Assembly (NCBI GenBank): GCA_046757025.1 | Contig: JBHHXN010000011.1 | Coordinates: 1 to 64,000, forward strand | DNA: 64,000 bases | Direction: 5' to 3' | DNA from: a bacterium | GTDB taxonomy: Bacteria; Zhuqueibacterota; Zhuqueibacteria; Oceanimicrobiales; Oceanimicrobiaceae | Part shown: positions 15,255-46,077 of the stretch, in pieces | How the letters are laid out: every line of letters starts with the position of its first letter | How positions within the stretch are numbered: the stretch's first letter is position 1 | Made by a program: the position numbers and the translations under genes | The notes under the pieces: model-generated | Database searches by the model: none | Seen by the model: only the letters and a program-made list of their open reading frames with translations | Told to the model about the DNA's origin: nothing

Positions 15255-15572
15255 ATGAAAAAACTTTTGAAATTGTTTGCCGTGATGGGGATATTGACTT
15301 CGTTTGCTTTGCCGAGCCGCAGCGAAGCCGGTGCAAGAATTTACGTTCGAATCGGCCCGCCCGCAAAAAAAACCGTTCGAGTTGTGAAACCCATCAAGAC
15401 ACTCAAAAACGCCGTTTGGGTAAAAGGCCACTGGAAGTACCAAAAAGGCCGCTACGTTTGGGTGGATGGTCATTTTGTGAAAGCGCGTCCAAAATACACC
15501 TATGTTCAGCCGTATTGGGTTAAAACACCACGTGGTTACTATTTCGTACCGGGCCATTGGGTTAAAAGATAA
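15255..15572 (+). CDS. secreted YXWGXW-repeat protein
   Basis: Signal peptide, GPP, repeats VWVKGHW, YVWVDGHF, YFVPGHW. Confidence 0.9.
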   Translation: MKKLLKLFAVMGILTSFALPSRSEAGARIYVRIGPPAKKTVRVVKPIKTLKNAVWVKGHWKYQKGRYVWVDGHFVKARPKYTYVQPYWVKTPRGYYFVPGHWVKR

Positions 15573-16634: not shown

Positions 16635-17909
16635 TTGCACAAAATTACGTTCCACAATTTCACGACAAAGTACAGAATCTATCAGACCCTGTACTGTATG
16701 CTGTTTTTGCACTTGCTGCATCGGCATGTGTCCGCACAGAATTTCATGACCACCGATTTCCAAAAAGCCTGGCAGATCACGAAAATACTTACTGAACACG
16801 GATTTAAAAATGTCTCAGTGATCATCGAAAAGGGCATGGCCATCGTTTCGTACGAGAACAGAAAATTTCGCAATGAAGTGGCGACTCTGCGTAGAGTCAC
16901 GGACTTGATAATTTCTGCAATAACGGATCAACGGACTTTGATCCTCGTTCCACAGAATCGCCAAATTCCCCTGGTGGCGGTGGCCATTCCCATCCAAACA
17001 TATTTGTCGTATGTAAAAGGCGAGATTTCGAAAGTGGAAATCAACGCGGCTATCCGGGTAAGTATGAACGTCGATTGGCTGCAGGAAAAAATGCGTTCAG
17101 TTCGGAATCGCCAAACCAATAGTATCCTGGAGCTGAACTTAAAAACGCGGGTTCGTGGACTTTTTCATTCGCAGCAGGGGGTAGCGCGCTGGAGCGTGGA
17201 TTTTGTGCCGGAGCTGACGTTCGTGTTTGCCAGAGGCAGCCAATTCATGGTAGAGGCCTTACTACCAGTCATGTATCAATTTGATGAAAAAAATAAAGAA
17301 GTGCGGCCGGGACGCGTGATTTTAAACCACACGCGAAGATTTCCACACAATTACTGGTTGTCGGCTAGTCTGGGCTATTTTGACCGCAGCCGATACGGGC
17401 TGGCTCTAGAAGGTGTCAAATTCTGGATGAACGGGCGATTTTATGTCACTTTGAAAGCCAATTATACGGGCTATCTCTACTTTCATCGCAATGTCTGGTA
17501 CTATTCGGAGCCCAGCCAGTTATCCTATTTTGCGAATTTGAGCTACCGTTTCTCCCGAATTGATTTATTGGTAAATTTAGGCTGGGGCCGGTTTTTGATC
17601 GGCGATAGGTCCTGGAAGATTTCCCTGTCTCGTTCGTTCGGTGAAGTTGATCTGGGTTTCTATGGTTTGTGGGAAGACGCCTCCAAACCGTCGCGATTTC
17701 TGGCCGGTCTGTTTTTCAAACTGCCTTTACCTTTCTTTCACAAAAACGTGACTAAGAATTTTTCTATCCAAACACAGAAGAACTTTTACTGGGGCTTGCA
17801 ACCACACACCGATACCGTGGGGCGGCTGGTGAAGTCCGAAAATTCCGTTGAGATTTTTTACCGAAATCTGTTTCCGACCTACATCAAAAATAATTTAATT
17901 AATCCATAA
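16635..17909 (+). CDS. YjbH/GfcD-like outer-membrane beta-barrel protein
   Basis: GFKNV..YENRKFR N-terminus, GYFDRSRYG, GRFLIGD, SRSFGEVDLGFY, LPLP; start may be ATG 16698. Confidence 0.65.
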   Translation: MHKITFHNFTTKYRIYQTLYCMLFLHLLHRHVSAQNFMTTDFQKAWQITKILTEHGFKNVSVIIEKGMAIVSYENRKFRNEVATLRRVTDLIISAITDQRTLILVPQNRQIPLVAVAIPIQTYLSYVKGEISKVEINAAIRVSMNVDWLQEKMRSVRNRQTNSILELNLKTRVRGLFHSQQGVARWSVDFVPELTFVFARGSQFMVEALLPVMYQFDEKNKEVRPGRVILNHTRRFPHNYWLSASLGYFDRSRYGLALEGVKFWMNGRFYVTLKANYTGYLYFHRNVWYYSEPSQLSYFANLSYRFSRIDLLVNLGWGRFLIGDRSWKISLSRSFGEVDLGFYGLWEDASKPSRFLAGLFFKLPLPFFHKNVTKNFSIQTQKNFYWGLQPHTDTVGRLVKSENSVEIFYRNLFPTYIKNNLINP

Positions 17910-17964
17910 GAAATGAATAAGTGTTTTCATGTGTCATTAATTTAAAAATAAATGGAGAGCAAAA

Positions 17965-18843
17965 ATGAATATGACAATTAAAAAACTTGGACTCAATTTT
18001 GTTTTTGTGTTACTGATGGTTCTCATCATTCCGTGGATGTTCAATTGTGGCTCCAAGAAGGTGGGACCCAACACGCCGCCGGAAATTGACATCGAAAATC
18101 CGCCGGAGGCTCCGGGCGTGGTAGAAGGCAGTGTGGACTATGCCCCGGTCAATGAATATACAAATATCATCCAACAGGCTGTTAATTCGCAGCAGGTGAC
18201 TCCCGAAGTGCAATCGGCGCTGGACACGTTTAATGTGCTGGTTGGTCAGGCTGACGTGAATTACCTGGCGTCCATCGATTCCACTGAGCTCAACAACATC
18301 GCAGCGGAATTGGAAACCACCGGCCATCTGCCGCAAAGATTATCCGATATCCTGGATAAGTTAGCCGGCTGGAATTTCCTACCCCAGGTGACAGAATCTT
18401 CCACTACGGATACGACGGGCAGCTCAAAGGTTATCTGGAAACAGTTAGACTATCTACTGAGCACGGCATTTGGACCGTTCGAAGATTGTGTCGAATTAGT
18501 GGATTCAACTTACCAGGCACAGCTTGCCATAGCCCAGCAAGACCGCGAAGACGGTAAAGCCGCGGCCGTACAAAAAGAAACGGAATGTAAAGACGGTCAG
18601 AATGAACGTCTCGGCTCACTGATCAGTGCCGTGGATGCGTTTTGTTCCTTTGCACCGCAAACCATTTGCGATCTGTTAAAAGCCACCTTGAATATCAGCA
18701 TTTTGGCTGACTTAGCTGCTTGTAAAAAACTGCGCACGAGTACCGAAGAAGCTTACGATGACGCTTATAATACGCTGGTAAAAAACCTGGACGACTGGCG
18801 CAGAGCTCAGATCAGTAGCTGCCATGAGACCTTTGGTGGTTAG
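17965..18843 (+). CDS. lipoprotein with six-Cys helical C-terminal domain
   Basis: Hydrophobic stretch ending MFNC-GS; GGAG RBS. Confidence 0.8.
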   Translation: MNMTIKKLGLNFVFVLLMVLIIPWMFNCGSKKVGPNTPPEIDIENPPEAPGVVEGSVDYAPVNEYTNIIQQAVNSQQVTPEVQSALDTFNVLVGQADVNYLASIDSTELNNIAAELETTGHLPQRLSDILDKLAGWNFLPQVTESSTTDTTGSSKVIWKQLDYLLSTAFGPFEDCVELVDSTYQAQLAIAQQDREDGKAAAVQKETECKDGQNERLGSLISAVDAFCSFAPQTICDLLKATLNISILADLAACKKLRTSTEEAYDDAYNTLVKNLDDWRRAQISSCHETFGG

Positions 18844-18897
18844 CTTATTTTCTGAAAGTAAGCAAAAAAACCGCTCGATCACTGACTCAAAATAGCT

Positions 18898-19659
18898 GTG
18901 CAAAGCATGTTCAAATACGCAAAAACCGTCTGCATTTTTATTGCCTGGTTAATGACCTTCCCCGCGGGAACGTGCGATGTTTTCGCAGGCGGGATGCTCA
19001 TTGGCCCGGGCGGGGCGCTGTTGACCCCTTCAGCGGAGTTGCCCGTGGATCGGCAAATGCGATTCGGAATTGGCAAAATCAATGCACCATTTGCCTTTAT
19101 CGAGGGACCGCAAACAAAGGAAAATTACTTGTTTTACACGAGTTTGGTTTTTTTGCCCAGATTTGAGATCACGCTGCTCATTACGTCTGCGCCTGGCAAG
19201 CCGGGAAACGACGGCTCAAATGTGTACAAAGACGCGGCGGTGTTTGCACAGTTTTACCTTTTGCCGGAAAAAGAGTACTTGCCAGCGGTGGCCCTCGGCG
19301 CTTACGATTTTTACAGTTTTTCATTTTATAACGCGCTGTTTGTGGTCATGACCAAAAATGTAAAAATCGGTTTGCCCGATCCAGTTATATTGAATTTGGG
19401 TTACGGTGTTGACTGGATCAACAAACATTACGGCGACACCGCTGGCGATCGTTATTTTCCGGTTCCGCATCAATGGGTTGGATTTTTTGGCAGCGTGGAA
19501 GTGCCCGTTCACAAGCGATTGTCGGCGGTTTTTGAACACGATAGCGAAAAATTTAATAGTGGGTTGCGTGTCAGTTTATTCGAACATGTTGAAATTCTGG
19601 CGGCGCTGTTAGAGTGGAAGACGTTTTCCGGAAATCTGAGTTTTATTTTCGAAATATAA
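18898..19659 (+). CDS. YjbH-domain outer-membrane protein
   Basis: G.L.TPSAE, FLPRFEI, LLPEKEYLPAVALGAYD, VFEHDSEKFNSGLR. Confidence 0.75.
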   Translation: MQSMFKYAKTVCIFIAWLMTFPAGTCDVFAGGMLIGPGGALLTPSAELPVDRQMRFGIGKINAPFAFIEGPQTKENYLFYTSLVFLPRFEITLLITSAPGKPGNDGSNVYKDAAVFAQFYLLPEKEYLPAVALGAYDFYSFSFYNALFVVMTKNVKIGLPDPVILNLGYGVDWINKHYGDTAGDRYFPVPHQWVGFFGSVEVPVHKRLSAVFEHDSEKFNSGLRVSLFEHVEILAALLEWKTFSGNLSFIFEI

Positions 19660-19925
19660 GTCACGGTTTTTTTTAATTTGTCATATTTAAACAATATATT
19701 TTGATATTTTATGGGCTATCATTTTTCACAAGACTTGAAGAATTTTCACGAACAACCGAATGATAAAACGAGTGTGGAGCGCCCGTTTCAACATGGCCTG
19801 CGAAATGGGCTTCGCTTTTGAATTCGAAATCAGCTTTGATTAGGTGAAACTTGTTTAATAAAAATTACCTGAAAAATGTCGGTCGCAGAAGTACTAAACA
19901 ATGAGAATTTTTATTGGAGGCACTC

Positions 19926-20612
19926 ATGCGTAAAATGAACAAACTGTCTGTCATATTTTTGACGTCAATATTAATTGTTTGCAGCCTGTCGCCATTGTTT
20001 GCCGGCGTTGGAGTGCAGTCTGTGGGGGTGAATTTTGGCTGGTATCGTCCTTCTTTGAATTACTGGAACACCAAGTCGGATATCGCCAACTGGAGCTCGA
20101 GTTTTAATGGTTCGTTCATCGGACAGGTGAATCTGGTAGCCACGCTCATACCGCCGCTGAGAGCGCGGATTGAGCTTGGGTACTGGCGGGAAAGCGTGAA
20201 ACAGCAAAATACCCGCATTGGCATCGACATCGGCACCGAAGAGGTGACGCTGAATTTGATCCCGATAACCGCCACCCTGCTGGTGGATCTGCCTTTTGTC
20301 GATTACAAAGGCATCACAGCTTATGCCGGAGCCGGCGCTTCGAGTATTGTGATTCGAAAAACCTATCTCCGCGCGCCAAGAAATTTTCCATACTTTCTGG
20401 AAACCAAAGCCGGATTGGATAATTCCGCACATTTTATTTTGGGAGCAGAAAAACAAATCGCGAAAGGATTGTCGTTCGGAGTTGAATTTCGCTATTTGTT
20501 GGGTTCGTATATTCAATTGGTGGAAGACACCCCCGGTGTGATTACCGAAGAAAAAGTGTCTATTTCCGGGCCGCAAATATTTTTTTCGTGGATTTATTTA
20601 CTGCATAATTGA
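19926..20612 (+). CDS. small outer-membrane beta-barrel protein
   Basis: Signal peptide, alternating strands LIPITAT, YAGAGA, FGVEFRY; GGAGG RBS before ATG 19926. Confidence 0.7.
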   Translation: MRKMNKLSVIFLTSILIVCSLSPLFAGVGVQSVGVNFGWYRPSLNYWNTKSDIANWSSSFNGSFIGQVNLVATLIPPLRARIELGYWRESVKQQNTRIGIDIGTEEVTLNLIPITATLLVDLPFVDYKGITAYAGAGASSIVIRKTYLRAPRNFPYFLETKAGLDNSAHFILGAEKQIAKGLSFGVEFRYLLGSYIQLVEDTPGVITEEKVSISGPQIFFSWIYLLHN

Positions 20613-20883: not shown

Positions 20884-21633
20884 ATGAAAGGTGTCATCCT
20901 GGCCGGCGGCTTAGGCACGCGTCTTTATCCACTGACAAAAATCACCAACAAGCATCTTCTGCCAATCTACGATCGACCCATGATCTACTATCCTCTCGAA
21001 ACCTTGGTGAAAGCCGGTATCGAGGAAATATTGATCGTGACCGGTGGCAATAACGCGGGGGATTTTTTGCGACTGTTGGGTAATGGTAAGGAATTTGGTT
21101 TGAAGCATCTCAATTATGCGTATCAGGAAGGGGAAGGCGGAATCGCTGAGGCGTTAAAATTGTCAGAATATTTTGTGGATGGGGATTCAGTTGTGGTGAT
21201 TTTAGGCGATAATATTATAGAAAAAAGCATCCACACGTCTGTGGATAATTTTGAAAAGCAGCAAGACGGCGCTAAAATTCTGCTGAAAAAGGTGGAAGAC
21301 CCACAACGATTTGGAGTGGCGGAGCTCGACGGCGATAAGGTCATTCGAATCGTTGAAAAACCTAAAGAACCGAAATCGGATTTGATCGTCACCGGCGTTT
21401 ATATGTACGATTCCGAAGTGTTTGATTTTATCAACTCTTTGAAGCCCTCGGACCGCGGCGAATTAGAAATTACCGACGTCAACAACCGCTATATCGAAAG
21501 AAACCGCATGACCTTCGAGATTATGGACGGCTGGTGGACCGACGCCGGTACCTTTGAATCGTTGTACAAAGCAAATTCACTGGTCGCCAAGCGCAAAATG
21601 CTGTTGAAAACGGAACGACAAGCAAATACCTAA
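20884..21633 (+). CDS. glucose-1-phosphate thymidylyltransferase-like nucleotidyltransferase (short form)
   Basis: GVILAGGLGTRLYPLT, KHLLPIYD, LGDN, VEKP, RGELEITD, WTDAGT. Confidence 0.92.
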   Translation: MKGVILAGGLGTRLYPLTKITNKHLLPIYDRPMIYYPLETLVKAGIEEILIVTGGNNAGDFLRLLGNGKEFGLKHLNYAYQEGEGGIAEALKLSEYFVDGDSVVVILGDNIIEKSIHTSVDNFEKQQDGAKILLKKVEDPQRFGVAELDGDKVIRIVEKPKEPKSDLIVTGVYMYDSEVFDFINSLKPSDRGELEITDVNNRYIERNRMTFEIMDGWWTDAGTFESLYKANSLVAKRKMLLKTERQANT

Positions 21634-36156: not shown

Positions 36157-37203
36157 ATGAAAAGAATAACCACCATTTTATCCGTTCTTTTCTTAACGAC
36201 ATTCGCAGCTACCAATGTTTTTGCCGTGAGCGAAGCCGCGGTGTTGTTTTTGTTAATTTCACCAAATGCGCGGGCTGGCGGCATGGGCGAAGCTTTTGCA
36301 GGTGTGGCAGATGATGTTTCAGCAAGTTACTGGAATCCGGCCGGTCTGGCGTTTCAAGAGGGCAAGCAATTTACTTCGATGTATTCGAAATGGTTGCCGC
36401 AATTCAATTTTAGCGATCTGTACTATTTATTTGGCGCCTACCGTCAGTCCATTGAGGGCTTGGGTACCATCGGGTTTAATATTACTTACATTAATTTGGG
36501 TGAACAAACCATTACCGAAGCCACCGGGCCCGAGCCTGTGGGTAAATTCAACAGCAACGAATGGGCCTTCACCTTTTCTTATGCGACCTTGCTTTCGGAG
36601 ACCATGAGTGTGGGATTAAATGTACGCTATATTCGCAGTAATTTATCCAGCGTAGGTGCCGGTACGGAAAAAGGCGATGGGCAAGCCGGAGCTTTTGCTT
36701 TGGACATTGCCATGTTGAAGAAAAATTTATTTCTGAATAACTTAAATTTGGGCCTCAACATTTCAAACATCGGACCCAAAATCACTTATGTGGATGCCTC
36801 GCAGGCGGATCCTTTGCCCACGAATTTCAAAATTGGACTGGCTTACCGGGCCATCGATCAGGAATTCAACCGGCTGACCTTTGCTTTTGATGTTAACAAA
36901 GAACTGGTTAAGAAAAACAAGAATGGTTCCACCGATTCAATCATCAAAGCATTTATCTCTGCATGGGATAACGAGAAAAAAAATCGCGGCATCATTTATA
37001 ACTTCGGAGCAGAATACTGGTATGCTAATTTAATTGCTTTGCGCGCCGGTTACTACTGGGACAAAGATGGCAACGTGGATTACCTGACGCTTGGTGCTGG
37101 ACTGCGTTACGACATCTACCAATTTGATTTTGGCTACATTTCAGCGGGTGAAAATCATCCCCTTTCGGATACCATGCGATTTTCTTTAACCGTCGGTCAA
37201 TGA
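36157..37203 (+). CDS. porV: type IX secretion PorV-family outer-membrane protein
   Basis: FLLISPNARAGGMGE, YWNPAGLAF, SKWLP, SNIGPKI, LPTNFKIG, GAEYWY, LRAGY, PLSDTMRFSL. Confidence 0.88.
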   Translation: MKRITTILSVLFLTTFAATNVFAVSEAAVLFLLISPNARAGGMGEAFAGVADDVSASYWNPAGLAFQEGKQFTSMYSKWLPQFNFSDLYYLFGAYRQSIEGLGTIGFNITYINLGEQTITEATGPEPVGKFNSNEWAFTFSYATLLSETMSVGLNVRYIRSNLSSVGAGTEKGDGQAGAFALDIAMLKKNLFLNNLNLGLNISNIGPKITYVDASQADPLPTNFKIGLAYRAIDQEFNRLTFAFDVNKELVKKNKNGSTDSIIKAFISAWDNEKKNRGIIYNFGAEYWYANLIALRAGYYWDKDGNVDYLTLGAGLRYDIYQFDFGYISAGENHPLSDTMRFSLTVGQ

Positions 37204-37278
37204 GCAGCCGATTTTCAATAACCATGTTTCAAAAATACGGGGATCTTCCCTTTATATAAACACTTAATTCAAAATTCC

Positions 37279-37327
37279 AAAAGGCAAGAATCGCTGCATT
37301 GTTTTCTTCAAAGGTTCTTGCCTTTTT
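37279..37327 (+). terminator. possible terminator after porV
   Basis: AAAAGGCAAGAA/TTCTTGCCTTTT inverted repeat with large loop. Confidence 0.5.
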
Positions 37328-37395
37328 AAGATCAGTGAATTGACTTTTACTAAATTTCAGTTTATTTTCATTCGAGGTGGTCGGGTTTATTGTTC

Positions 37396-40300
37396 ATGAA
37401 GAAAAAAAATATCCGTCGGCTTTTTTGTGTATTTTGTTTCATGGCACTTTGGCTGACAAATGTATTTGGCCAGAGCCTGAATATGATGCTTCATCCGAGC
37501 GGCGTATCCAACAGAGATTTGCTGGAAATCGGAACGCCGGTGAGTCGAATTAAAAATAAGGCGAGAATTTCCGCAGCGAATCAAGCCAGTCCAACGACCT
37601 TGAAGCTTTTGGCCCTGCGCGTGGAATTTCAGGAAGATAGCAATAATCTCACCACTGGCAACGGGAAGTTTGATCTGTCCACATCCAGCTCTGCGGTCAT
37701 CGATGCTCCGCCGCATGATTTGAATTATTTTCAAAACCAATTGCTGGCACTGGCCAACTATTTTCAAACCGTATCCAACGGCCAGCTGCTACTGGAAGCC
37801 GAGGTCTTTCCCAAAGAATCTTCCAGAAGCTATACCGTGTCTCAGGAAATGGCCTACTATTCACCGGTGCAGCCAGAGGAGCTGGTTGATCAACGATTGG
37901 CTGAATTATTTCAGGAAAGCTTGCAAATCGCCGACGACGCCGATGACATCGATTTTTCGCAATACGACAGCTTTATCCTTTTTCATGCGGGCGTGGGGCT
38001 GGATTTTGCCATCGATCTGGATCAAACGCCGCAGGATGTGCCATCGGTTTTTCTGGATTATTTGACTTTGCAGAAAATTTTAGGCAACAACGATCCAACT
38101 TATCCGGGCATTTCTGTAAACGAGGGTAGCTTTTTTGTGAAGGACGGGATGATTCTGCCGGAAACTCAGAGTCAGGAAGGGTTCCAGATCGCTTTGCTTG
38201 GCACCATGGCCATCATGTTCGGGCATCAGTTGGGGCTGCCCAACCTGTTTAGCACCGACACCGGCTTGCCGGGCGTTGGCATCTTTGGACTGATGGACCA
38301 GGGCTCCGGCAATTTCAGCGGCTTGTTGCCTGCGGAACCTTGTGCCTGGTCGAAGTTGTTTTTACGATGGGAAAACGCCATCGAAGTGAAAAACGGCACG
38401 GACCTGCAAATCGCGGCGCGCCACGCCAGAAATTCAAACAAAATTTATAAAATCCCCATCGATAGCCGGGAGTATTTCCTGCTTGAAAACCGTCATCGCG
38501 ATGTGAACGCAGACGGTATCGCAATCGGCCGGGACGCAAACGGTAAACGCATCGAGTTCAAATGGAACGAGGAAGGACAGCAGCTTATTTTCGATGGCTC
38601 CGTCGGGGTTATCACTCAGGTCAATGAATACGATTTCGGTTTGCCAGGGTCGGGTATTTTGATCTGGCATGTGGATGAGCGCATCATTGAAGCGAATTTT
38701 ACCGAAAACCGAGTGAACGCCGAACCCGAACATCGTGGAGTGGATCTGGAAGAAGCCGATGGCGCCCAGGACATAGGACAGGTTTACGGATTTTTAAGTC
38801 CGGGCTCGGGCGCTGAAAATGGCGTAATCGAGGACATGTTCTGGGGCTCCAACCCCATCAACATGCTGGTGAACGATTCTTCCAGCGTGGTGGCATTTAC
38901 GCCTTTTACCCGACCCAACAGTCTCTCCAATGCCGAAGCCAATTCGCACATTTTTATCACCGATTTTAGCGAGCCGGATTCCGTGATGACTTTCAGTGTG
39001 CATGAGAGTATTTCGCTCTCTGGATTTCCACAATTTACGGGCGCCGCAGATCGGGTAGTCAGCTCGCCGATGTTGGCGGATCTCGATGGCGATGAGCAGA
39101 TGGAAATCATTTTGAATTCTGAAAGCAGCACCAACTTGTTTGTATGGAAATTCGACGGCACGAAATTGATTGCAAACCAGGATGCCGGGCAAATTGAAAA
39201 AGTAAACGGCGATTTGACGTCTTACCCGCTTGCGATCTTTGCCACTCCAAAAGGGACGACTTCCTTTACGCCGGCGGTTGTCCAGAGAAACGCAGAACGT
39301 CTGGTGGTTGCAGTAACGGATGAAGTGGTAGCCGCTTATTTACCTCAAGACCTGGATTTCGACGGCCGGGCCGATAGTTTGTTCGTTTTTGCGAGCTCTG
39401 CAAAACTGACGACTCCGCCTTTGGTGGTGGAATCCGGCGGGGACTTCGATATCGTGGTGGGCAATGTCAACGGCGAGATAATAATCGTGAACAGCGACGG
39501 GTTTGGAACCGTGCTGGCAGATCCGGATGCTTTGGAAATAACCGGTCTGGCTTTGTATTCTCAAAACCGCATGGCCTTCACATCAAAGAACGGCGAAACC
39601 GGTTTGCTGGGAATCGACGGCACGGTTCACTGGCAAAATGCCCTGGGGGCGGTTTTTTCAAACGCGCCAGTGGTTGGGGATCTTGACAAAGACGGCGCTT
39701 TGAATATTGTGGCGGTTTCAGAAGATGGGCAGATTTTTGCCTTTGATCCACAAGGGCAAACGTTGGATGATTATCCAAAATCCACGGGTTTGAATCCGAG
39801 CTCCCAGGTGGTTCTGGGCGATGTCGATGGCGATAAATTTCTTGAAATGGTATTTGTCGCAGAAAAGAAACTTTACGCCTTCAATCACACGGGTTCGTTA
39901 ACCAGCCAGTTCCCTATTTTGCTTTCCGACGATATTTCACCGAAACAGATTTTTTCTTCTCCCATCCTGGTGGATTTCGACCAGGATGGCCGATCAGAAA
40001 TTGTGGTTGGTACACTTGAAAATCGCTTGGTGGCGTTTCATGCGAATGGGCAGCTCGTTAATGACTTTCCGCTATCCACAGGTGGCGCCATCAATTCAAC
40101 GCCAGCGCTGGCCGATGTTGACGCTGACGGCGATATCGAAATCGCCGCCGCGGCCGACGATGGATTCTTGTACGTTTGGGACCTAGTTGAGGAACTGCTG
40201 CCAGAAAACGTTGCCTGGGGCAGCTTGTTTCACGATATTCAGCATACCAACGCCAATTTAAATTCAGAATCGCCAGCGCAACCTTCCGGACAGCTCATGC

Positions 40301-40575
40301 CGGCGAAATTTGTTTACAATTATCCGAATCCCACTGAAGGCACCCAGACCACCATTCGCTATCGCCTGAATTTCCCCGCGCAGATTCAAATAAAAATTTA
40401 CGATCTGGCTGGCGAATTGATTGATGAATTTTCCGGGCCGGGACATGCGCAAGCGGATAACGAAGTGGAATGGCCTTTGAGCGGGGTCGAGAGCGGGGTG
40501 TATCTGGCGCGGGTCGAGGCCAAAGGAAATGGCTTGACCGATGTCGCGTTTGTGAAAATTGCGGTAGTTAAATAA
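37396..40575 (+). CDS. M6 (InhA)-like domain + FG-GAP repeats + T9SS-type C-terminal domain
   Basis: LALRVEF, IDFSQYD, FHAG, GLMDQG, AWSK, YFLLENR, GILIWHVDE; DxDGDxxxEI repeats; YNYPNP...IYDLAGE...SGVYL...KIAVVK. Confidence 0.85.
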   Translation: MKKKNIRRLFCVFCFMALWLTNVFGQSLNMMLHPSGVSNRDLLEIGTPVSRIKNKARISAANQASPTTLKLLALRVEFQEDSNNLTTGNGKFDLSTSSSAVIDAPPHDLNYFQNQLLALANYFQTVSNGQLLLEAEVFPKESSRSYTVSQEMAYYSPVQPEELVDQRLAELFQESLQIADDADDIDFSQYDSFILFHAGVGLDFAIDLDQTPQDVPSVFLDYLTLQKILGNNDPTYPGISVNEGSFFVKDGMILPETQSQEGFQIALLGTMAIMFGHQLGLPNLFSTDTGLPGVGIFGLMDQGSGNFSGLLPAEPCAWSKLFLRWENAIEVKNGTDLQIAARHARNSNKIYKIPIDSREYFLLENRHRDVNADGIAIGRDANGKRIEFKWNEEGQQLIFDGSVGVITQVNEYDFGLPGSGILIWHVDERIIEANFTENRVNAEPEHRGVDLEEADGAQDIGQVYGFLSPGSGAENGVIEDMFWGSNPINMLVNDSSSVVAFTPFTRPNSLSNAEANSHIFITDFSEPDSVMTFSVHESISLSGFPQFTGAADRVVSSPMLADLDGDEQMEIILNSESSTNLFVWKFDGTKLIANQDAGQIEKVNGDLTSYPLAIFATPKGTTSFTPAVVQRNAERLVVAVTDEVVAAYLPQDLDFDGRADSLFVFASSAKLTTPPLVVESGGDFDIVVGNVNGEIIIVNSDGFGTVLADPDALEITGLALYSQNRMAFTSKNGETGLLGIDGTVHWQNALGAVFSNAPVVGDLDKDGALNIVAVSEDGQIFAFDPQGQTLDDYPKSTGLNPSSQVVLGDVDGDKFLEMVFVAEKKLYAFNHTGSLTSQFPILLSDDISPKQIFSSPILVDFDQDGRSEIVVGTLENRLVAFHANGQLVNDFPLSTGGAINSTPALADVDADGDIEIAAAADDGFLYVWDLVEELLPENVAWGSLFHDIQHTNANLNSESPAQPSGQLMPAKFVYNYPNPTEGTQTTIRYRLNFPAQIQIKIYDLAGELIDEFSGPGHAQADNEVEWPLSGVESGVYLARVEAKGNGLTDVAFVKIAVVK

Positions 40576-40577
40576 TA

Positions 40578-41276
40578 GTGAAAAACCGATATTGTTATTT
40601 TGAAAAAGTTAAAAGCAGGGAAGCAAGGATTATGAAAGGATTCATGTTATTTTTTTCACTGGTATGGGTGTTTTCTGGTTTTAATAATTTGCCGGCTGAG
40701 CAAGGGAAAAAGAATGTTGCTCACCAAAATCGCCAAACAAAGTTGCAAGCTGTTTCGCCGTTTATCATCTTTATGGAAAATAAGCCTAAGCAATTTATCA
40801 ATTTTTCCATTTCAAAATATCAGACCGTGCATTTTGCACTGAATCGCCAGCGACTGTTTTATGTGGATTTTAAAAAGGATTCTGAGGATAACCCGGAAAT
40901 CGAAAAATGGCTTTTGCGAGACTGGTCTGCCAGGTTGTCCTTTAATCGGCAGCTCAAACCCATCTATAAAAATCTGCTGCCATATATTGGAATTGGCGCG
41001 GGAAATTGCTATATTCAAGACAGTAAATTAAATATCAAACGCGGCAAAAAATATCCTGAAGAAACTTTTCTGGATTATGAAATGCGTGGGTATTTTAAGC
41101 ATCCCGGAGTGTTTGGCGCGGCTGGGCTGCAGTTTCGACCGACTTCGAAAGCGTTCTTTTTTATTCAAAGCAAGTGTTCGATTTTGTTCGATCAAAATAA
41201 TTTTCTCATGCAGCCTTCCACAAAATTTACCGATTTAATTAACATTTCGACTGGCTTTCGATTCGCTATTTTTTAA
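40578..41276 (+). CDS. hypothetical outer-membrane protein
   Basis: Signal peptide from ATG 40632; PYIGIGAG, GAAGLQF, C-terminal TGFRFAIF. Confidence 0.65.
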   Translation: MKNRYCYFEKVKSREARIMKGFMLFFSLVWVFSGFNNLPAEQGKKNVAHQNRQTKLQAVSPFIIFMENKPKQFINFSISKYQTVHFALNRQRLFYVDFKKDSEDNPEIEKWLLRDWSARLSFNRQLKPIYKNLLPYIGIGAGNCYIQDSKLNIKRGKKYPEETFLDYEMRGYFKHPGVFGAAGLQFRPTSKAFFFIQSKCSILFDQNNFLMQPSTKFTDLINISTGFRFAIF

Positions 41277-41291
41277 AACCACAGAGGGAGA

Positions 41292-44200
41292 ATGAGCCGT
41301 AAATCGATTTTAATTTGGGCCGTCATTTTTGGAATGAGTGCGTTTTGGCGGATGCCAGCCAGGTGCCTCGCCCAACCGCAATTTTACAATCATCCAGAAT
41401 TGAAATGGTTTTCAATTGAAACCGAGCATTTTTATGTTCACTTCCACAACGGTGCCGAACGCACCGCCAAAGTGGTGGCCAAGATCGCAGAAGAAATTTA
41501 CGAACCCATCACCTCGTTGTACCAGTTCAGGCCCTCCGGCAAATATCATTTCATTATCAAAGATCACGACGACTATTCAAACGGCGGGGCATTTTTTTAT
41601 GACAACAAAATAGAAATTTGGGCAACGCCCATGCGCTTTGAACTACGCGGTACCCACGATTGGCTGAGAAACGTGGTGACGCATGAATTCACGCACATGG
41701 TGCAGCTGCAATCGGCCCGGAAAATCACCCGCAGAATTCCCGCCTTTTATTTGCAGGCCATCGGTTACGAAAGCACCCGGCGGGAGGATGTGCTGCACGG
41801 CGGACCCAACGTCATTGCATCTTACCCGTTTGCCATGACCGTGATGCCCGGTTGGTTTGCAGAAGGTGTGGCGCAGTTCCAGATTCCCGGCCTGGAATAC
41901 GAAACCTGGGATTCCCACCGGGACATGATTCTGCGTACCGCCACCCTCGATGATAAACTTTTGACTTACAACCAAATGGGCGTGTTTGGCAAGAACAGCT
42001 TGGGAAACGAAAAGGTGTACAACCACGGTTACGCGTTCGTTTCCTATCTGGTGCAGCAGTACGGTTTGGAAACCGTGCGCACGGTTTCCCACAACATGAA
42101 ATCGTTTTTTCGACTGTCTCTGGATGGAGCGCTGAAAAAAGCCACCGGCAAAAGCGGCCGGCAACTGTATAAAGACTGGACTACCGCACTGCGGGAGCAG
42201 TATGTCTCCCAAACGAGTGAAATTAGAAAGAACAAAGTCGAGGGTAAAATTCTGGAAGCCAGCGGCCTTGCCAATTTAAATCCTGTCTGGTCGCCGGAAG
42301 GCACCCGCATCGCTTACCATTCAAATCGAGGGCGGGACTACATGTCGCAGACGCAATTGATGGTCCGAAACATGCAAAGCGGAAAAACCGAAGCGGTCGC
42401 TGCCGGCAGATATGCCATCGCCTGGTCGCCAGATGGCCGCAAATTGGCCTTTGCCAGCAATTCAGCACGCAGTAAAGGCGGCTCCCGATATTACGATATC
42501 TACAGTTATGAGCTGGATTCCCGTAACAAGACCCGTGAAACCAGGGCACAACGCGCCCACAGTCCCGATTGGTCGGCCGACGGAAAGAAACTGGTTTACA
42601 TCACGGCAAAAGACGGCACCGAAAATTTGGAGATTTTACATTTAGACAGCCGAGAAAAAGTTAAGATCACGCACTTCCAGAATGGCGAGCAACTGCATCA
42701 GCCTCGCTGGTCGCCGGACGGTAAGTCCGTTCTCTTTACGCTTTCCAGAGGAAATCACCAGGACCTGTATCTGAAGGATTTGGAAAACGGCGAACTCATG
42801 GCGATTTTAGAAGATCCCGCTGATTCCCGAGATGCCGTGTTCGGTGCGGACGGCAGACACATCTATTTTAGCTGGGACAAAACCGGCATTTACAACATCT
42901 ATTCGCTGGATTTGACGACTAAGAAAACCGTACAATGGACCAACGTCATCGGAGGCGCTTTCATGCCGTCGGTGAGCCGCAACGGTGCTCTGGTGTTTTC
43001 CCTGTTCACTTCAGATGGTTATAAAATCTCTGTCATTGAAAAACCACTGCCGGTGCGGGAATCTTCCGCGCCTTATTTGACGCTTCAGGAGGGACCCCAG
43101 TTTGCTTCTGTAAAGACGCATCTACAAGACGCCAATATAAGCAAAATCAACGTGCACAATTTCGACGATAGCCAGCTTCCCGATTTTCAGATCAAGCCTT
43201 ACAAAAATCAGTATTCCTCGTTGACCTTTTTGCCGCGTGTTATGCTGGATTACGGCACGGTGAAAGTCGGAACCTACCTTTATTCCTACGACGTTTTAAA
43301 TAAATATGGATTTCTGGCGGGTTTTGATGTCAATCGCCGCGGCGATTACGATTTGTTTACTTTGATCGAATATCGAAACTTCGGACCGACCCTGTTTTTG
43401 GAAGCTTATAACCAGATTCAACACACCAAAGCGCGCGTGGACGATCCGAAAATTTTGCTGGGAAGAGGCTTGTTCGATGAAACGGTGGACAAATTTAAGT
43501 TCAATCTGGCCGAGGTGGACGCCGGCGTCAGTTTTAAGCTCAGCGATGCCAACGAGCTGCGAACCGCTTTTGTTTACAGCCGTTACGGCGTGAAAGCGAA
43601 TTTGAATTTTAGCACGGGGCCGGTTACGCTGCATTATAAATATTTTATCGGGCGCGATATTTCCGTCCGCTTCACTCATCGCGGTTTTGTGCCGGCGGTT
43701 GATTCGGAAATCAATCCCACTGGCCGATTCATTTTACTGGAATATGATTTTGAATTTAATAAATTCCTGGAAGATTTTGAAACCGACCAGCCGGTGAGCA
43801 TTGAAAAGTTTTCCAATTTCAACTACCATAAATTTACCGTGGATTGGAAAGAAAATTGGCGTTTGCCCCTGAAAAATCACACCATCAATTTTGTCCTGCA
43901 AGCCGGATTCATCACCACCAAAGATGACACACTGGAAGACGGCACTTTTAAAGACGACAGTTTTTTCTATTTTTTTGGCGGCGGTTTGTTTGGCAACCGT
44001 GGATATCCCTACTTCAGTATCGAAGGCCGAAAATCGATTTTGGGCCGGGTCACCTACCGACTGCCGCTGGTGAGGAACCTCGATTTGCGCTTTATGCATC
44101 TCTATTTCGACAAAATATTTCTGGGCTTGTTTGTCGATTATGGCAATGCCTTTAATGAAAATAAATTAAATTTTGATAAATTCAAAACCAGCGTCGGTGT

Positions 44201-44354
44201 GCAGTTGCGGATGGATAGCTTTTCTTTTTATTCCTACCCAACCCGCGTCTTTTTCGATGCGGCTTATGGGTTGAACAAATTTCAATTTGCAAACCAGACT
44301 TATGGCAATGAATGGAGATTTTATTTTGGTCTCTCATTCGGTTTTTTGGATTAA
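41292..44354 (+). CDS. peptidase MA-like + PD40/TolB propeller + Omp85-type barrel fusion
   Basis: W.sIETEHF, HEFTH, PGWFAEGVA, several WSPDG repeats, DYGNAF, terminal FYFGLSFGFLD. Confidence 0.8.
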   Translation: MSRKSILIWAVIFGMSAFWRMPARCLAQPQFYNHPELKWFSIETEHFYVHFHNGAERTAKVVAKIAEEIYEPITSLYQFRPSGKYHFIIKDHDDYSNGGAFFYDNKIEIWATPMRFELRGTHDWLRNVVTHEFTHMVQLQSARKITRRIPAFYLQAIGYESTRREDVLHGGPNVIASYPFAMTVMPGWFAEGVAQFQIPGLEYETWDSHRDMILRTATLDDKLLTYNQMGVFGKNSLGNEKVYNHGYAFVSYLVQQYGLETVRTVSHNMKSFFRLSLDGALKKATGKSGRQLYKDWTTALREQYVSQTSEIRKNKVEGKILEASGLANLNPVWSPEGTRIAYHSNRGRDYMSQTQLMVRNMQSGKTEAVAAGRYAIAWSPDGRKLAFASNSARSKGGSRYYDIYSYELDSRNKTRETRAQRAHSPDWSADGKKLVYITAKDGTENLEILHLDSREKVKITHFQNGEQLHQPRWSPDGKSVLFTLSRGNHQDLYLKDLENGELMAILEDPADSRDAVFGADGRHIYFSWDKTGIYNIYSLDLTTKKTVQWTNVIGGAFMPSVSRNGALVFSLFTSDGYKISVIEKPLPVRESSAPYLTLQEGPQFASVKTHLQDANISKINVHNFDDSQLPDFQIKPYKNQYSSLTFLPRVMLDYGTVKVGTYLYSYDVLNKYGFLAGFDVNRRGDYDLFTLIEYRNFGPTLFLEAYNQIQHTKARVDDPKILLGRGLFDETVDKFKFNLAEVDAGVSFKLSDANELRTAFVYSRYGVKANLNFSTGPVTLHYKYFIGRDISVRFTHRGFVPAVDSEINPTGRFILLEYDFEFNKFLEDFETDQPVSIEKFSNFNYHKFTVDWKENWRLPLKNHTINFVLQAGFITTKDDTLEDGTFKDDSFFYFFGGGLFGNRGYPYFSIEGRKSILGRVTYRLPLVRNLDLRFMHLYFDKIFLGLFVDYGNAFNENKLNFDKFKTSVGVQLRMDSFSFYSYPTRVFFDAAYGLNKFQFANQTYGNEWRFYFGLSFGFLD

Positions 44355-44374
44355 AATAAAAAAGGGTTAATGGC

Positions 44375-45271
44375 ATGAAAAATCTAACTCTATTCGTGAT
44401 CATCCTGGTGCTTGTGGGAATGACAAACCCGGCCCTGGCTGATGAAGGAGCCAAATCAGCCAAAGAGGTTTTTATGCGCTCCTGGATTGAATCTGGCTCT
44501 CGTTTGCACTTACAAAATGAAATGACCACCAACTCAAATGAAAAAAGATGGCCAGAGCAAGATTTCAAATTGAATGATGAACAAAAGAATGGCACAAAAT
44601 CCATCGCGAAAGCCGTGTTGTTTTCGGCGGCGGTGCCGGGAGCAGGTCAATTTTACAACAAATCTTATTTGAAAAGTATCTTATTTGTGGTACTTGAAGC
44701 CGCCACTTTGACGGGTTATGTTCATTTTCAAAATCGCGGCAATGATCTGGAATCGCAATTTGAACGCTATGCGGATCAATATTGGAGTGAAGATGTTTAC
44801 TGGGACTGGATGGCAAATATCAGCGCCATCGATCGCTCGAATATGGCTGCGTTACGTGAGTTTGAACGCGCAAATTTCAGCCATTTTTTGCCCGAAGAAA
44901 AATCACAGCAATATTATGAGAATATTGGTAAGTACAATCAATTTGTTATCGGGTGGGATGATTTGAATTTTAAACCCGAAAATTTAACTTATCAGGATTA
45001 TCTGAATAGCAGCTACAATGGACAGAATTTGGATACCATATCAGCTTTGCGAGAAGATTACACTTTGCAGCGCAAGGATGCCAACGACAATTTTAAACGC
45101 GCCACCAATTTGATCACCATCACCATGCTCAATCATGTGATCAGCGCCATCGAAGCCGGATTCACCGCTAAACGGCGCAATCGCCGTGCCTTGAAAGCGA
45201 ATATTCGTTTCAGAGGGATGTACTATTACAACGATATTATTCCATCGATAAATTTAGGACTGAAATGGTAA
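44375..45271 (+). CDS. DUF5683-like exported/membrane protein
   Basis: SAAVPGAGQFY, YYENIGKY, NHVISAIEA. Confidence 0.7.
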   Translation: MKNLTLFVIILVLVGMTNPALADEGAKSAKEVFMRSWIESGSRLHLQNEMTTNSNEKRWPEQDFKLNDEQKNGTKSIAKAVLFSAAVPGAGQFYNKSYLKSILFVVLEAATLTGYVHFQNRGNDLESQFERYADQYWSEDVYWDWMANISAIDRSNMAALREFERANFSHFLPEEKSQQYYENIGKYNQFVIGWDDLNFKPENLTYQDYLNSSYNGQNLDTISALREDYTLQRKDANDNFKRATNLITITMLNHVISAIEAGFTAKRRNRRALKANIRFRGMYYYNDIIPSINLGLKW

Positions 45272-46077
45272 AATCCATCGTTCAAATTGGCGTGTTTACC
45301 TGGGCGTTAGGGTTGACTGCTGTGTTCGCGGGAACGCCCCAGCTGCAAAAGCCCTCGAATGCCAACCCATTGCAGCCGTCGCAATTAGGTTTTGAGCTGA
45401 AATTAAAAGCTCTAAATTCTGTGGTGGATAATCGCTACCTGCGCAACGAAAGCAGCACGCTGTCGAATTTTTCTGCCAATTTACAAGCAAAAGTACAGCC
45501 CAAATCCAAAGGCCGAGCCTTTTTGCAGTCGTTGATTTTGCCGGGCTGGGGGCAGTATTACGCTGGCTCTAAATCCATGATGAAAATGTTCATCGTAACC
45601 GAAGTGCTGACTTGGGCCTCCTACATCGGTTTCACCACCTGGAAAAACTGGCTGGCGGACGATTACCGTACTTTTGCGGTCACCCACGCGGGCGTCGATC
45701 TGGAAGGTAAATCCGAAAGATACTTTGTGGACGTCGGTAATTTTCGGGACATCTTTGAGTTTAATCAAGCGCAACTCCGCGACCGGGACGTCGCTTCGCT
45801 CTATCCCGAAACCGCCGAGTTTTTCTGGCGGTGGGACAGCGCGGAAAACCAGCAAAAGTTCGAGACGCTCCGCATACGAAGCGATAGAGCCGGTAACCGA
45901 GCTGAATTTGCCCTGGCAGCGGTGTTTCTAAATCACCTGCTTAGCGCCATCCATTCTACGCTGGCGGTGCATAAATTCAACAAGCAGCTTGCTCAACTGA
46001 AGCTAGGTTTGCGAATGGATGTTAAGGGACTTGCGCAAAACAACCAGCTGCAACTCACCCTGAGTAAACGATTTTAG
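45265..46077 (+). CDS. DUF5683-like protein, paralog of upstream gene
   Basis: SLILPGWGQYY, YFVDVGNF, WRWDS, NHLLSAI. Confidence 0.7.
   Translation: MVKSIVQIGVFTWALGLTAVFAGTPQLQKPSNANPLQPSQLGFELKLKALNSVVDNRYLRNESSTLSNFSANLQAKVQPKSKGRAFLQSLILPGWGQYYAGSKSMMKMFIVTEVLTWASYIGFTTWKNWLADDYRTFAVTHAGVDLEGKSERYFVDVGNFRDIFEFNQAQLRDRDVASLYPETAEFFWRWDSAENQQKFETLRIRSDRAGNRAEFALAAVFLNHLLSAIHSTLAVHKFNKQLAQLKLGLRMDVKGLAQNNQLQLTLSKRF

Follow-up and report, generated by a model that had tools for sequence, protein, structure and literature searches.

Do two outer-membrane barrel genes that enclose a lipoprotein gene encode a secretion device, an anchor for a surface protein or a part of a polysaccharide exporter? 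The question is raised by four co-oriented open reading frames (ORFs) on the plus strand (16635-17909, 17965-18843, 18898-19659 and 19914-20612; genes 1 to 4) of a 64,000-nucleotide stretch of contig JBHHXN010000011.1 (assembly GCA_046757025.1, Zhuqueibacterota, family Oceanimicrobiaceae), which as a whole is called the window. An initial annotation had described the cassette as two YjbH-like barrels and a small barrel around a cysteine-stapled lipoprotein, possibly a dedicated translocon or anchor for the latter and an undescribed module. All four ORFs were confirmed in the window. The two larger barrel genes represent one GfcD/YjbH protein, split and in reversed order, and a C-terminal tail is common to lipoproteins that are unrelated in sequence and co-occur reciprocally with the barrel genes. 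The module is real, widespread and partly in print already. We tentatively favour a role of the tail as docking signal for the barrels.

Judged by sequence, genes 1 and 3 each encode one half of a single YjbH/GfcD protein, with the lipoprotein gene between them, because their coverage of PF06082 (formerly DUF940) is complementary and agrees with the domain boundaries of E. coli GfcD (PMC11494523). Gene 1 (start discussed below) matches positions 276-625 of the profile with 41.4 bits, gene 3 (18898..19659) positions 32-195 with 39.9 bits, both above the Pfam cut-off of 24, and these are the sole PF06082 matches in the window's genome. The YjbH similarity of both genes stands; the notion of two copies does not. 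Gene 1 covers the middle, periplasmic alpha/beta domain and the C-barrel with a terminal helical plug-like extension, and gene 3 a stand-alone N-terminal barrel. In contrast, E. coli GfcD of the group 4 capsule export module (gfcABCDE-etp-etk; YjbH in yjbEFGH), in which PF06082 covers the middle domain as well as the two barrels, is a single chain with the N-barrel first, whereas here two genes have the C-half first. The frame of gene 1 is open from a TTG at 16635, but its true start is probably the ATG at 16698 (16698..17909), since the database protein has 403 amino acids (aa). The AlphaFold2 (AF2) model of gene 1 (pLDDT 88.8, 37-row alignment) presents the alpha/beta domain at 19-133, 12 long strands plus short terminal strands (~13) and helices at 384-399, which is compatible with the 13 strands and the C-terminal plug of the laterally gated GfcD C-barrel. 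Its closest structural neighbours were CymA and OmpG (Z 12.8) and PelB (Z 12.4). A functional hint from the VIA matches of gene 1 was rejected, as these are generic barrels tied at Z about 12-13. Foldseek gave no match at E<=0.001 for genes 1 and 2, and a sequence search of the PDB 0 matches for genes 1 and 3. The barrel fold of gene 3 is inferred from the GfcD literature, where the N-barrel is 12-stranded and FapF-like. Its search returned 3206 cluster representatives at E<=0.001, and 148 of the 150 best had 172-308 aa, i.e. were stand-alone; word-based protein searches were too insensitive, with 3 matches for gene 1 and 6 for the gene-3 profile. Three Bacteroidota loci have a single ORF of 636-675 aa in place of the two half genes, which by length and N-terminal sequence appear to be fused halves. 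A distant stand-alone N-barrel-like gene is located on another contig of the window's genome (G000:C27:3063-3809, L190; E 2.6e-10) and likewise at L072, in a conserved unrelated context; among the genes surrounding the C27 copy was no C-half or tagged lipoprotein.

Gene 2 (17965..18843, 292 aa) has a lipoprotein-type signal with Cys28 and six further cysteines spaced 33-19-8-18-33; it has no Pfam match. Its model is almost all-helical with a long helical hairpin (helices 171-210 and 232-290), on which disulfides 175-286, 208-253 and 227-235 are likely. The cysteine spacing is symmetric (33/33 in gene 2, 43-44/44 in 15 of 16 homologue rows); on what is predicted to be an antiparallel hairpin, such symmetry speaks for two disulfide staples, the last of which marks the start of the tail. 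The stapled lipoprotein proposed initially is backed by this inference. A word search with gene 2 revealed no homologue beyond itself. Its Atlas model matched a Bacteroidota cluster (TM 0.65), and gene 2 aligns over its full length to the lipoprotein of the Bacteroidota locus L187 (24% identity, pairwise E 7e-5). A four-row profile yielded 17 matches in 16 of 301 genomes of the order of L187; the weakly alike L188 (14-18%) is matched partly by construction, because it was in the seed alignment. All 17 matches adjoin a YjbH half and all 17 end in CHNQG, to which C286-H287 of gene 2 align, both residues being invariant in an 18-row alignment. A grouping of gene 2 with a helical HDQG family of its own class was rejected (17-20% identity, no BLAST link); by comparison of model and sequence the true homologues of gene 2 are in Bacteroidota.

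PF06082 is present in 48 of 125 genomes of the window's class, and a C-half profile matched in 48 of 167 genomes of the phylum. The locus set comprised 60 regions and the window, thus 61 loci, with seven matched contigs left out. In 32 loci the neighbouring lipoprotein ends in a strict H[DN]QG tail; four have a variant tail (window, L045, L068, L071) and four a cut or truncated lipoprotein of the same family. Besides the loci with both halves and no tagged neighbour that are weighed below, one locus contains just a C-half, another just an N-like gene, and eight are cut by contig ends. The tagged lipoproteins form five BLAST-unlinked families of about 245-590 aa. The strict tail occurs on 32 of the 509 ORFs at these loci, all 32 of them barrel neighbours, against a background of 0 in 4348 ORFs of the window's genome; its last His lies 6-17 residues before the C-terminus. 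A Big_1-type lipoprotein family was present in 24 of the 167 genomes, all within the 48 with a C-half. Four Big_1-type copies with no barrel gene in their 5.5-8.5 kb region still keep HNQG, three of them in genomes whose barrel locus had no tagged neighbour. Big_1-type cassettes of the window's class (L049, L051, L063, L064, L066, L065) have recurrent flanks, namely radical SAM/SPASM, PqqD, S24-like peptidase, ABC transporter and NTP_transf_5 genes, resembling peptide-modification clusters embedded in glycan loci. Some Big_1-type genes are broken by an internal stop (L038:1103-2602, G056) or into two frames (L049:7838-9651, G047), maybe assembly errors or decay.

The same arrangement was found in Bacteroidota. 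P. distasonis has a C-half, a 776-aa lipoprotein with a His-Gly tail and an N-half; a loci scan using this C-half found nothing. A set of 75 Bacteroidales loci of the Bacteroides type, drawn from the best 80 of 244 matches to one subfamily and therefore biased, contained 63 genes after the C-half, all of which end in His..GG (background 99/4348 ORFs in the window's genome and 109/713 other six-frame ORFs). DUF3869 and BF9343_1606-like proteins account for several of these lipoproteins, and in 61 loci the N-half has an OmpA-sized gene beside it (3/3 checked were PF00691). An even Bacteroidota sample gave 14 matching genomes out of 401. Among 14 loci, from 13 of those genomes plus one further Bacteroides locus, all had a neighbouring lipoprotein with a His-x-x-Gly tail, nine of them strict, and 5/14 had no adjacent N-half. 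YjbH orthologues are, then, usually accompanied by a lipoprotein. At L177-L181 a C-half is accompanied by an HDQG/HNQG lipoprotein, in three loci then by OmpA, and no N-half was detected in the region covered; from these loci, the C-barrel alone may be the partner of the tail. Phocaeicola-type C-halves have only ~300 aa (L094:7108-8004, L095:7093-8004, L098:7108-8004), likely without the middle domain; they terminate glycan loci, and the accompanying lipoproteins have the C-terminus RQHTGG. Some Bacteroides genomes harbour multiple close cassettes with differing lipoproteins (L108/L109, L113/L114, L121/L140, L128/L158), L140 being a tandem pair.

Gene 4 (19914..20612) probably encodes a small OmpA-like beta-barrel of the PF13505 type without a peptidoglycan-binding domain. 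The match to PF13505 is weak (23.2 bits, cut-off 28.7, E 8.7e-5); the orthologue in L045 passes with 30.3 bits. Neither PF00691 nor a profile of the Bacteroides OmpA genes matched gene 4. Homologues (E 3e-18 to 2e-21) directly follow the lipoprotein gene in 9 of the 17 Bacteroidota loci of the gene-2 family, and one further locus has a longer OmpA-like fusion in this place. Because of this conservation, all four genes are, as far as sequence tells, a conserved cassette subtype with shuffled order.

How much of this has been described before? DUF940 is the GfcD/YjbH family, and GfcD binds a GfcB-GfcC heterodimer (PMC8592465). Neither GfcD barrel domain has close single-barrel homologues according to Solan et al. 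(10.1101/2021.02.17.431615), and a few C-barrel-only matches were reported by Saidi et al. (10.1101/2022.02.11.480155). Lipoproteins with His-rich tails beside DUF940 and OmpA-like genes were described by Natarajan et al. 2015 (PMC4387736), who suggested trafficking or a membrane complex; the DUF940 proteins were taken for lipoproteins, not double-barrel halves, and the tail was not linked to DUF940. The window has this neighbourhood: its DUF940 genes adjoin a lipobox protein whose C-terminal segment contains His, with the tail degenerate to one His. The DUF3869 (PF12985)-DUF940-OmpA loci of Bacteroides, including BT0292-94, share the arrangement of C-half, His-tailed lipoprotein and N-half, together with an OmpA-type barrel gene to which gene 4 may correspond. 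Their lipoproteins have a transthyretin-like N-terminal domain, whereas gene 2 is an unrelated helical hairpin, and their OmpA gene has the peptidoglycan-binding domain that gene 4 lacks. BT0292 and BT0293 are annotated as YjbH-domain proteins (PMC10434189); BT0292-94 are phase-variable and 79-156-fold up under phage in acapsular B. thetaiotaomicron (Porter et al., bioRxiv 10.1101/521070). The S-layer loci BT1926-BT1927 of B. thetaiotaomicron likewise pair a lipoprotein with an adjacent 8-stranded barrel, which has been put forward as its anchor or secretion partner (PMC12578637), but the S-layer lipoprotein has about 100 kDa, and Porter et al. set the BT0292-94 type apart from these loci. To call the module undescribed was too strong, given the neighbourhood in PMC4387736 and BT0292-94 in the preprint. 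For the split, reversed GfcD form and for the tail as a cross-family, cross-phylum signal, the literature searched, mostly without subscription papers, gave no account; Additional file 2 of PMC4387736 may show paired DUF940 genes.

The two halves likely re-associate in the outer membrane into one GfcD/YjbH double barrel, which would bind the gene 2 lipoprotein via its C-terminal His-Gly tail. The lipoprotein would be held at the cell surface as a variable surface component, and the small barrel may help to anchor it. Many lineages carry the module together with capsule genes, where it would act for the glycan coat in the manner of GfcBCD; Bacteroides-type loci have it on its own. A tail present on unrelated lipoproteins and kept only where barrels exist suggests a docking signal and a docking/display complex, to which we assign somewhat less than an even chance on comparative grounds. 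The anchor half of the initial proposal gains from the common tail and the reciprocal co-occurrence. Several observations weigh against docking and display. Eleven of the 61 own-phylum loci have both halves without a tagged neighbour, and the locus counts are not independent because the genomes are related. The families f12 and f13 have no Big_1-family lipoprotein (0/14 and 0/5; other lipoprotein families were not searched). The tail of gene 2 itself is degenerate (C286-H287...G-G), retaining a single His and the terminal Gly pair. The net charge of gene 2 after the Cys is +2, and a net negative charge is found in no more than 2 of 17 family members; the acidic export-signal rule thus gives no support for a surface location of gene 2. 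This speaks against plain surface display along the general route and leaves both principal rivals a place. Finally, a glycan gene lies immediately beside 13 of the 17 gene-2-family loci, and a periplasmic accessory role would account for this just as well. A complex prediction for genes 1+3+2 with alignments (controls not folded) scored 0.02 against a mark of 0.32 and is taken neither for nor against binding. In f12 (L035, L036, L042, L043, L044, L054) the halves are adjacent with no tagged lipoprotein, and a conserved ~480-aa protein comes next (in L043 two ORFs are inserted before it); this protein has a SPOR domain in L042, and a DUF362 gene lies downstream in L044. The family is possibly a lipoprotein-free subtype.

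The glycan neighbours lead to the strongest rival: the cassette would be a counterpart of GfcBCD in the Fibrobacteres-Chlorobi-Bacteroidetes (FCB) group, in which the laterally gated C-barrel exports a lipid-anchored polysaccharide, the lipoprotein is a periplasm-facing accessory like GfcB, and the window copy is an orphan working with wza loci elsewhere. We consider this rather unlikely, though not to be neglected. The neighbours in the 13 gene-2-family loci are seven downstream wza, three WecG, two sugar transferases and one GT1, and the seven cassettes lie directly upstream of Poly_export (wza) as gfcD precedes gfcE; wza-wzc often follow the close relatives of this cassette. Of the own-phylum loci, a hand-picked subset was scanned and at least 10 had nearby Pfam-confirmed glycan genes; three more Bacteroidales loci (two Phocaeicola, one unassigned gut scaffold) come after glycan genes. 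The cassette itself is, as first noted, without gfcABC, wza or glycosyltransferase, but its surroundings are not wholly free of glycan genes, because an RmlA-like sugar-1-phosphate nucleotidyltransferase gene (20884..21633, plus strand; PF00483, E 1e-62) starts 271 bases past gene 4. It is a neighbour whose membership is unproven; its score for TIGR01207 is under the cut-off, and such a gene is in equal position at L045. The window's genome has four Wza-type matches, all on other contigs and none linked in the window. A lipid A exit model for GfcD-C, from simulation only (PMC11494523), and the presence of PelB among the top structural neighbours of gene 1 also fit a polysaccharide exporter. 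However, YjbF/GfcB (PF11102) and GfcC (PF06251) had 0 matches in the window's genome (94.8% complete), while an E. coli control matched; the E. coli module has GfcB/GfcC where the cassette has its small barrel and a lipoprotein that varies but bears a His tail. Bacteroides-type loci are most often bordered by ruvX and def, and the 35 flank clusters scanned, out of 54, included no glycan transferase or export family. A single fixed accessory is hard to reconcile with unrelated, adhesin-like lipoproteins (DUF3869, Big_1, carboxypeptidase-regulatory) whose lengths span about 245-870 aa. The glycan link is real but not obligatory: YjbH orthologues are not always inside polysaccharide loci, as these Bacteroides-type flanks tell, while the closest relatives of gene 2 mostly are.

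Slam, or type XI, secretion is a known case of a barrel gene that adjoins its cognate surface lipoprotein, with C-terminal recognition. None of the cassette genes has a Slam-family Pfam match, and gene 2 is helical, not a TbpB-like barrel. A split GfcD/YjbH could by itself be a dedicated FCB secretion system for surface lipoproteins, whose barrels read the H-[DN]-Q-G or His-Gly tail on interchangeable passengers of unrelated fold; judged from sequence patterns we regard such a system as improbable. As a translocon, with the tail as C-terminal export signal, the chain threading through the barrel and the acyl anchor leaving by the lateral gate, the cassette is an unlikely alternative. A terminal motif on interchangeable passengers would be typical of secretion signals, and the last His of the strict tail lies near the end. 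A lipid anchor could well leave through the lateral gate (PMC11494523), the acidic N-terminal export signal is missing from gene 2 and most of its family, and Saidi et al. speculated that the N-barrel secretes a polypeptide. A dedicated translocon is made less likely because Bacteroidota export surface lipoproteins through the lipopolysaccharide (LPS) translocon, of which LptP is conserved across FCB phyla (bioRxiv 10.64898/2026.10.03.756453), and the signal peptide of BT_0294 alone, without the tail, gives efficient secretion of a reporter (PMC11554821). An acidic signal is carried by at least 41 of the 63 Bacteroides-type lipoproteins (the Cys was mis-assigned in many of the other 22), and a disulfide-stapled hairpin would be hard to thread. 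The translocon half of the initial proposal is weakened accordingly. A tail that binds metal or cell wall and has nothing to do with the barrels, as speculated in PMC4387736, with the genes travelling together for another reason, is very improbable. In its favour are the long His-Gly repeats of Bacteroides and one crystal structure in which the tail packs in an ordered way on its own protein (PMC4387736). Against it, one His is enough in most other lineages, and all genomes and loci in which the strict tail was seen have the barrels.

Further features of the window lie apart from the cassette. About 1 kb upstream, a small secreted WXXGXW-repeat protein is encoded at 15255-15572 (plus strand; PF12779, weak BcpO match). 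One run at 36157-46077 (plus strand) comprises a PorV-family barrel, an M6-like protein sorted by the type IX secretion system (T9SS), a small barrel-like ORF, a PD40/peptidase-MA protein and two DUF5683-like proteins. The PorV and T9SS sorting-domain genes of the window suggest a lineage of the FCB type. B. thetaiotaomicron phase-variable surface loci have an invertible promoter with an adjacent recombinase; no recombinase was present among the flanking ORFs scanned here, and a repeat search upstream of the cassette was not made.

GfcD/YjbH is the largest family of double barrels, and its cargo is known only from simulation. Because the partner of the split form varies and its tail is short and recognisable, the cargo question can be tested in BT0292-94 of B. 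thetaiotaomicron, a locus already tied to survival under phage. If the secretion reading were true, proteins as well as glycans would belong to the cargo of the GfcD family. Should the tail dock or export passengers, it would also be a small tag for surface display in gut Bacteroides.

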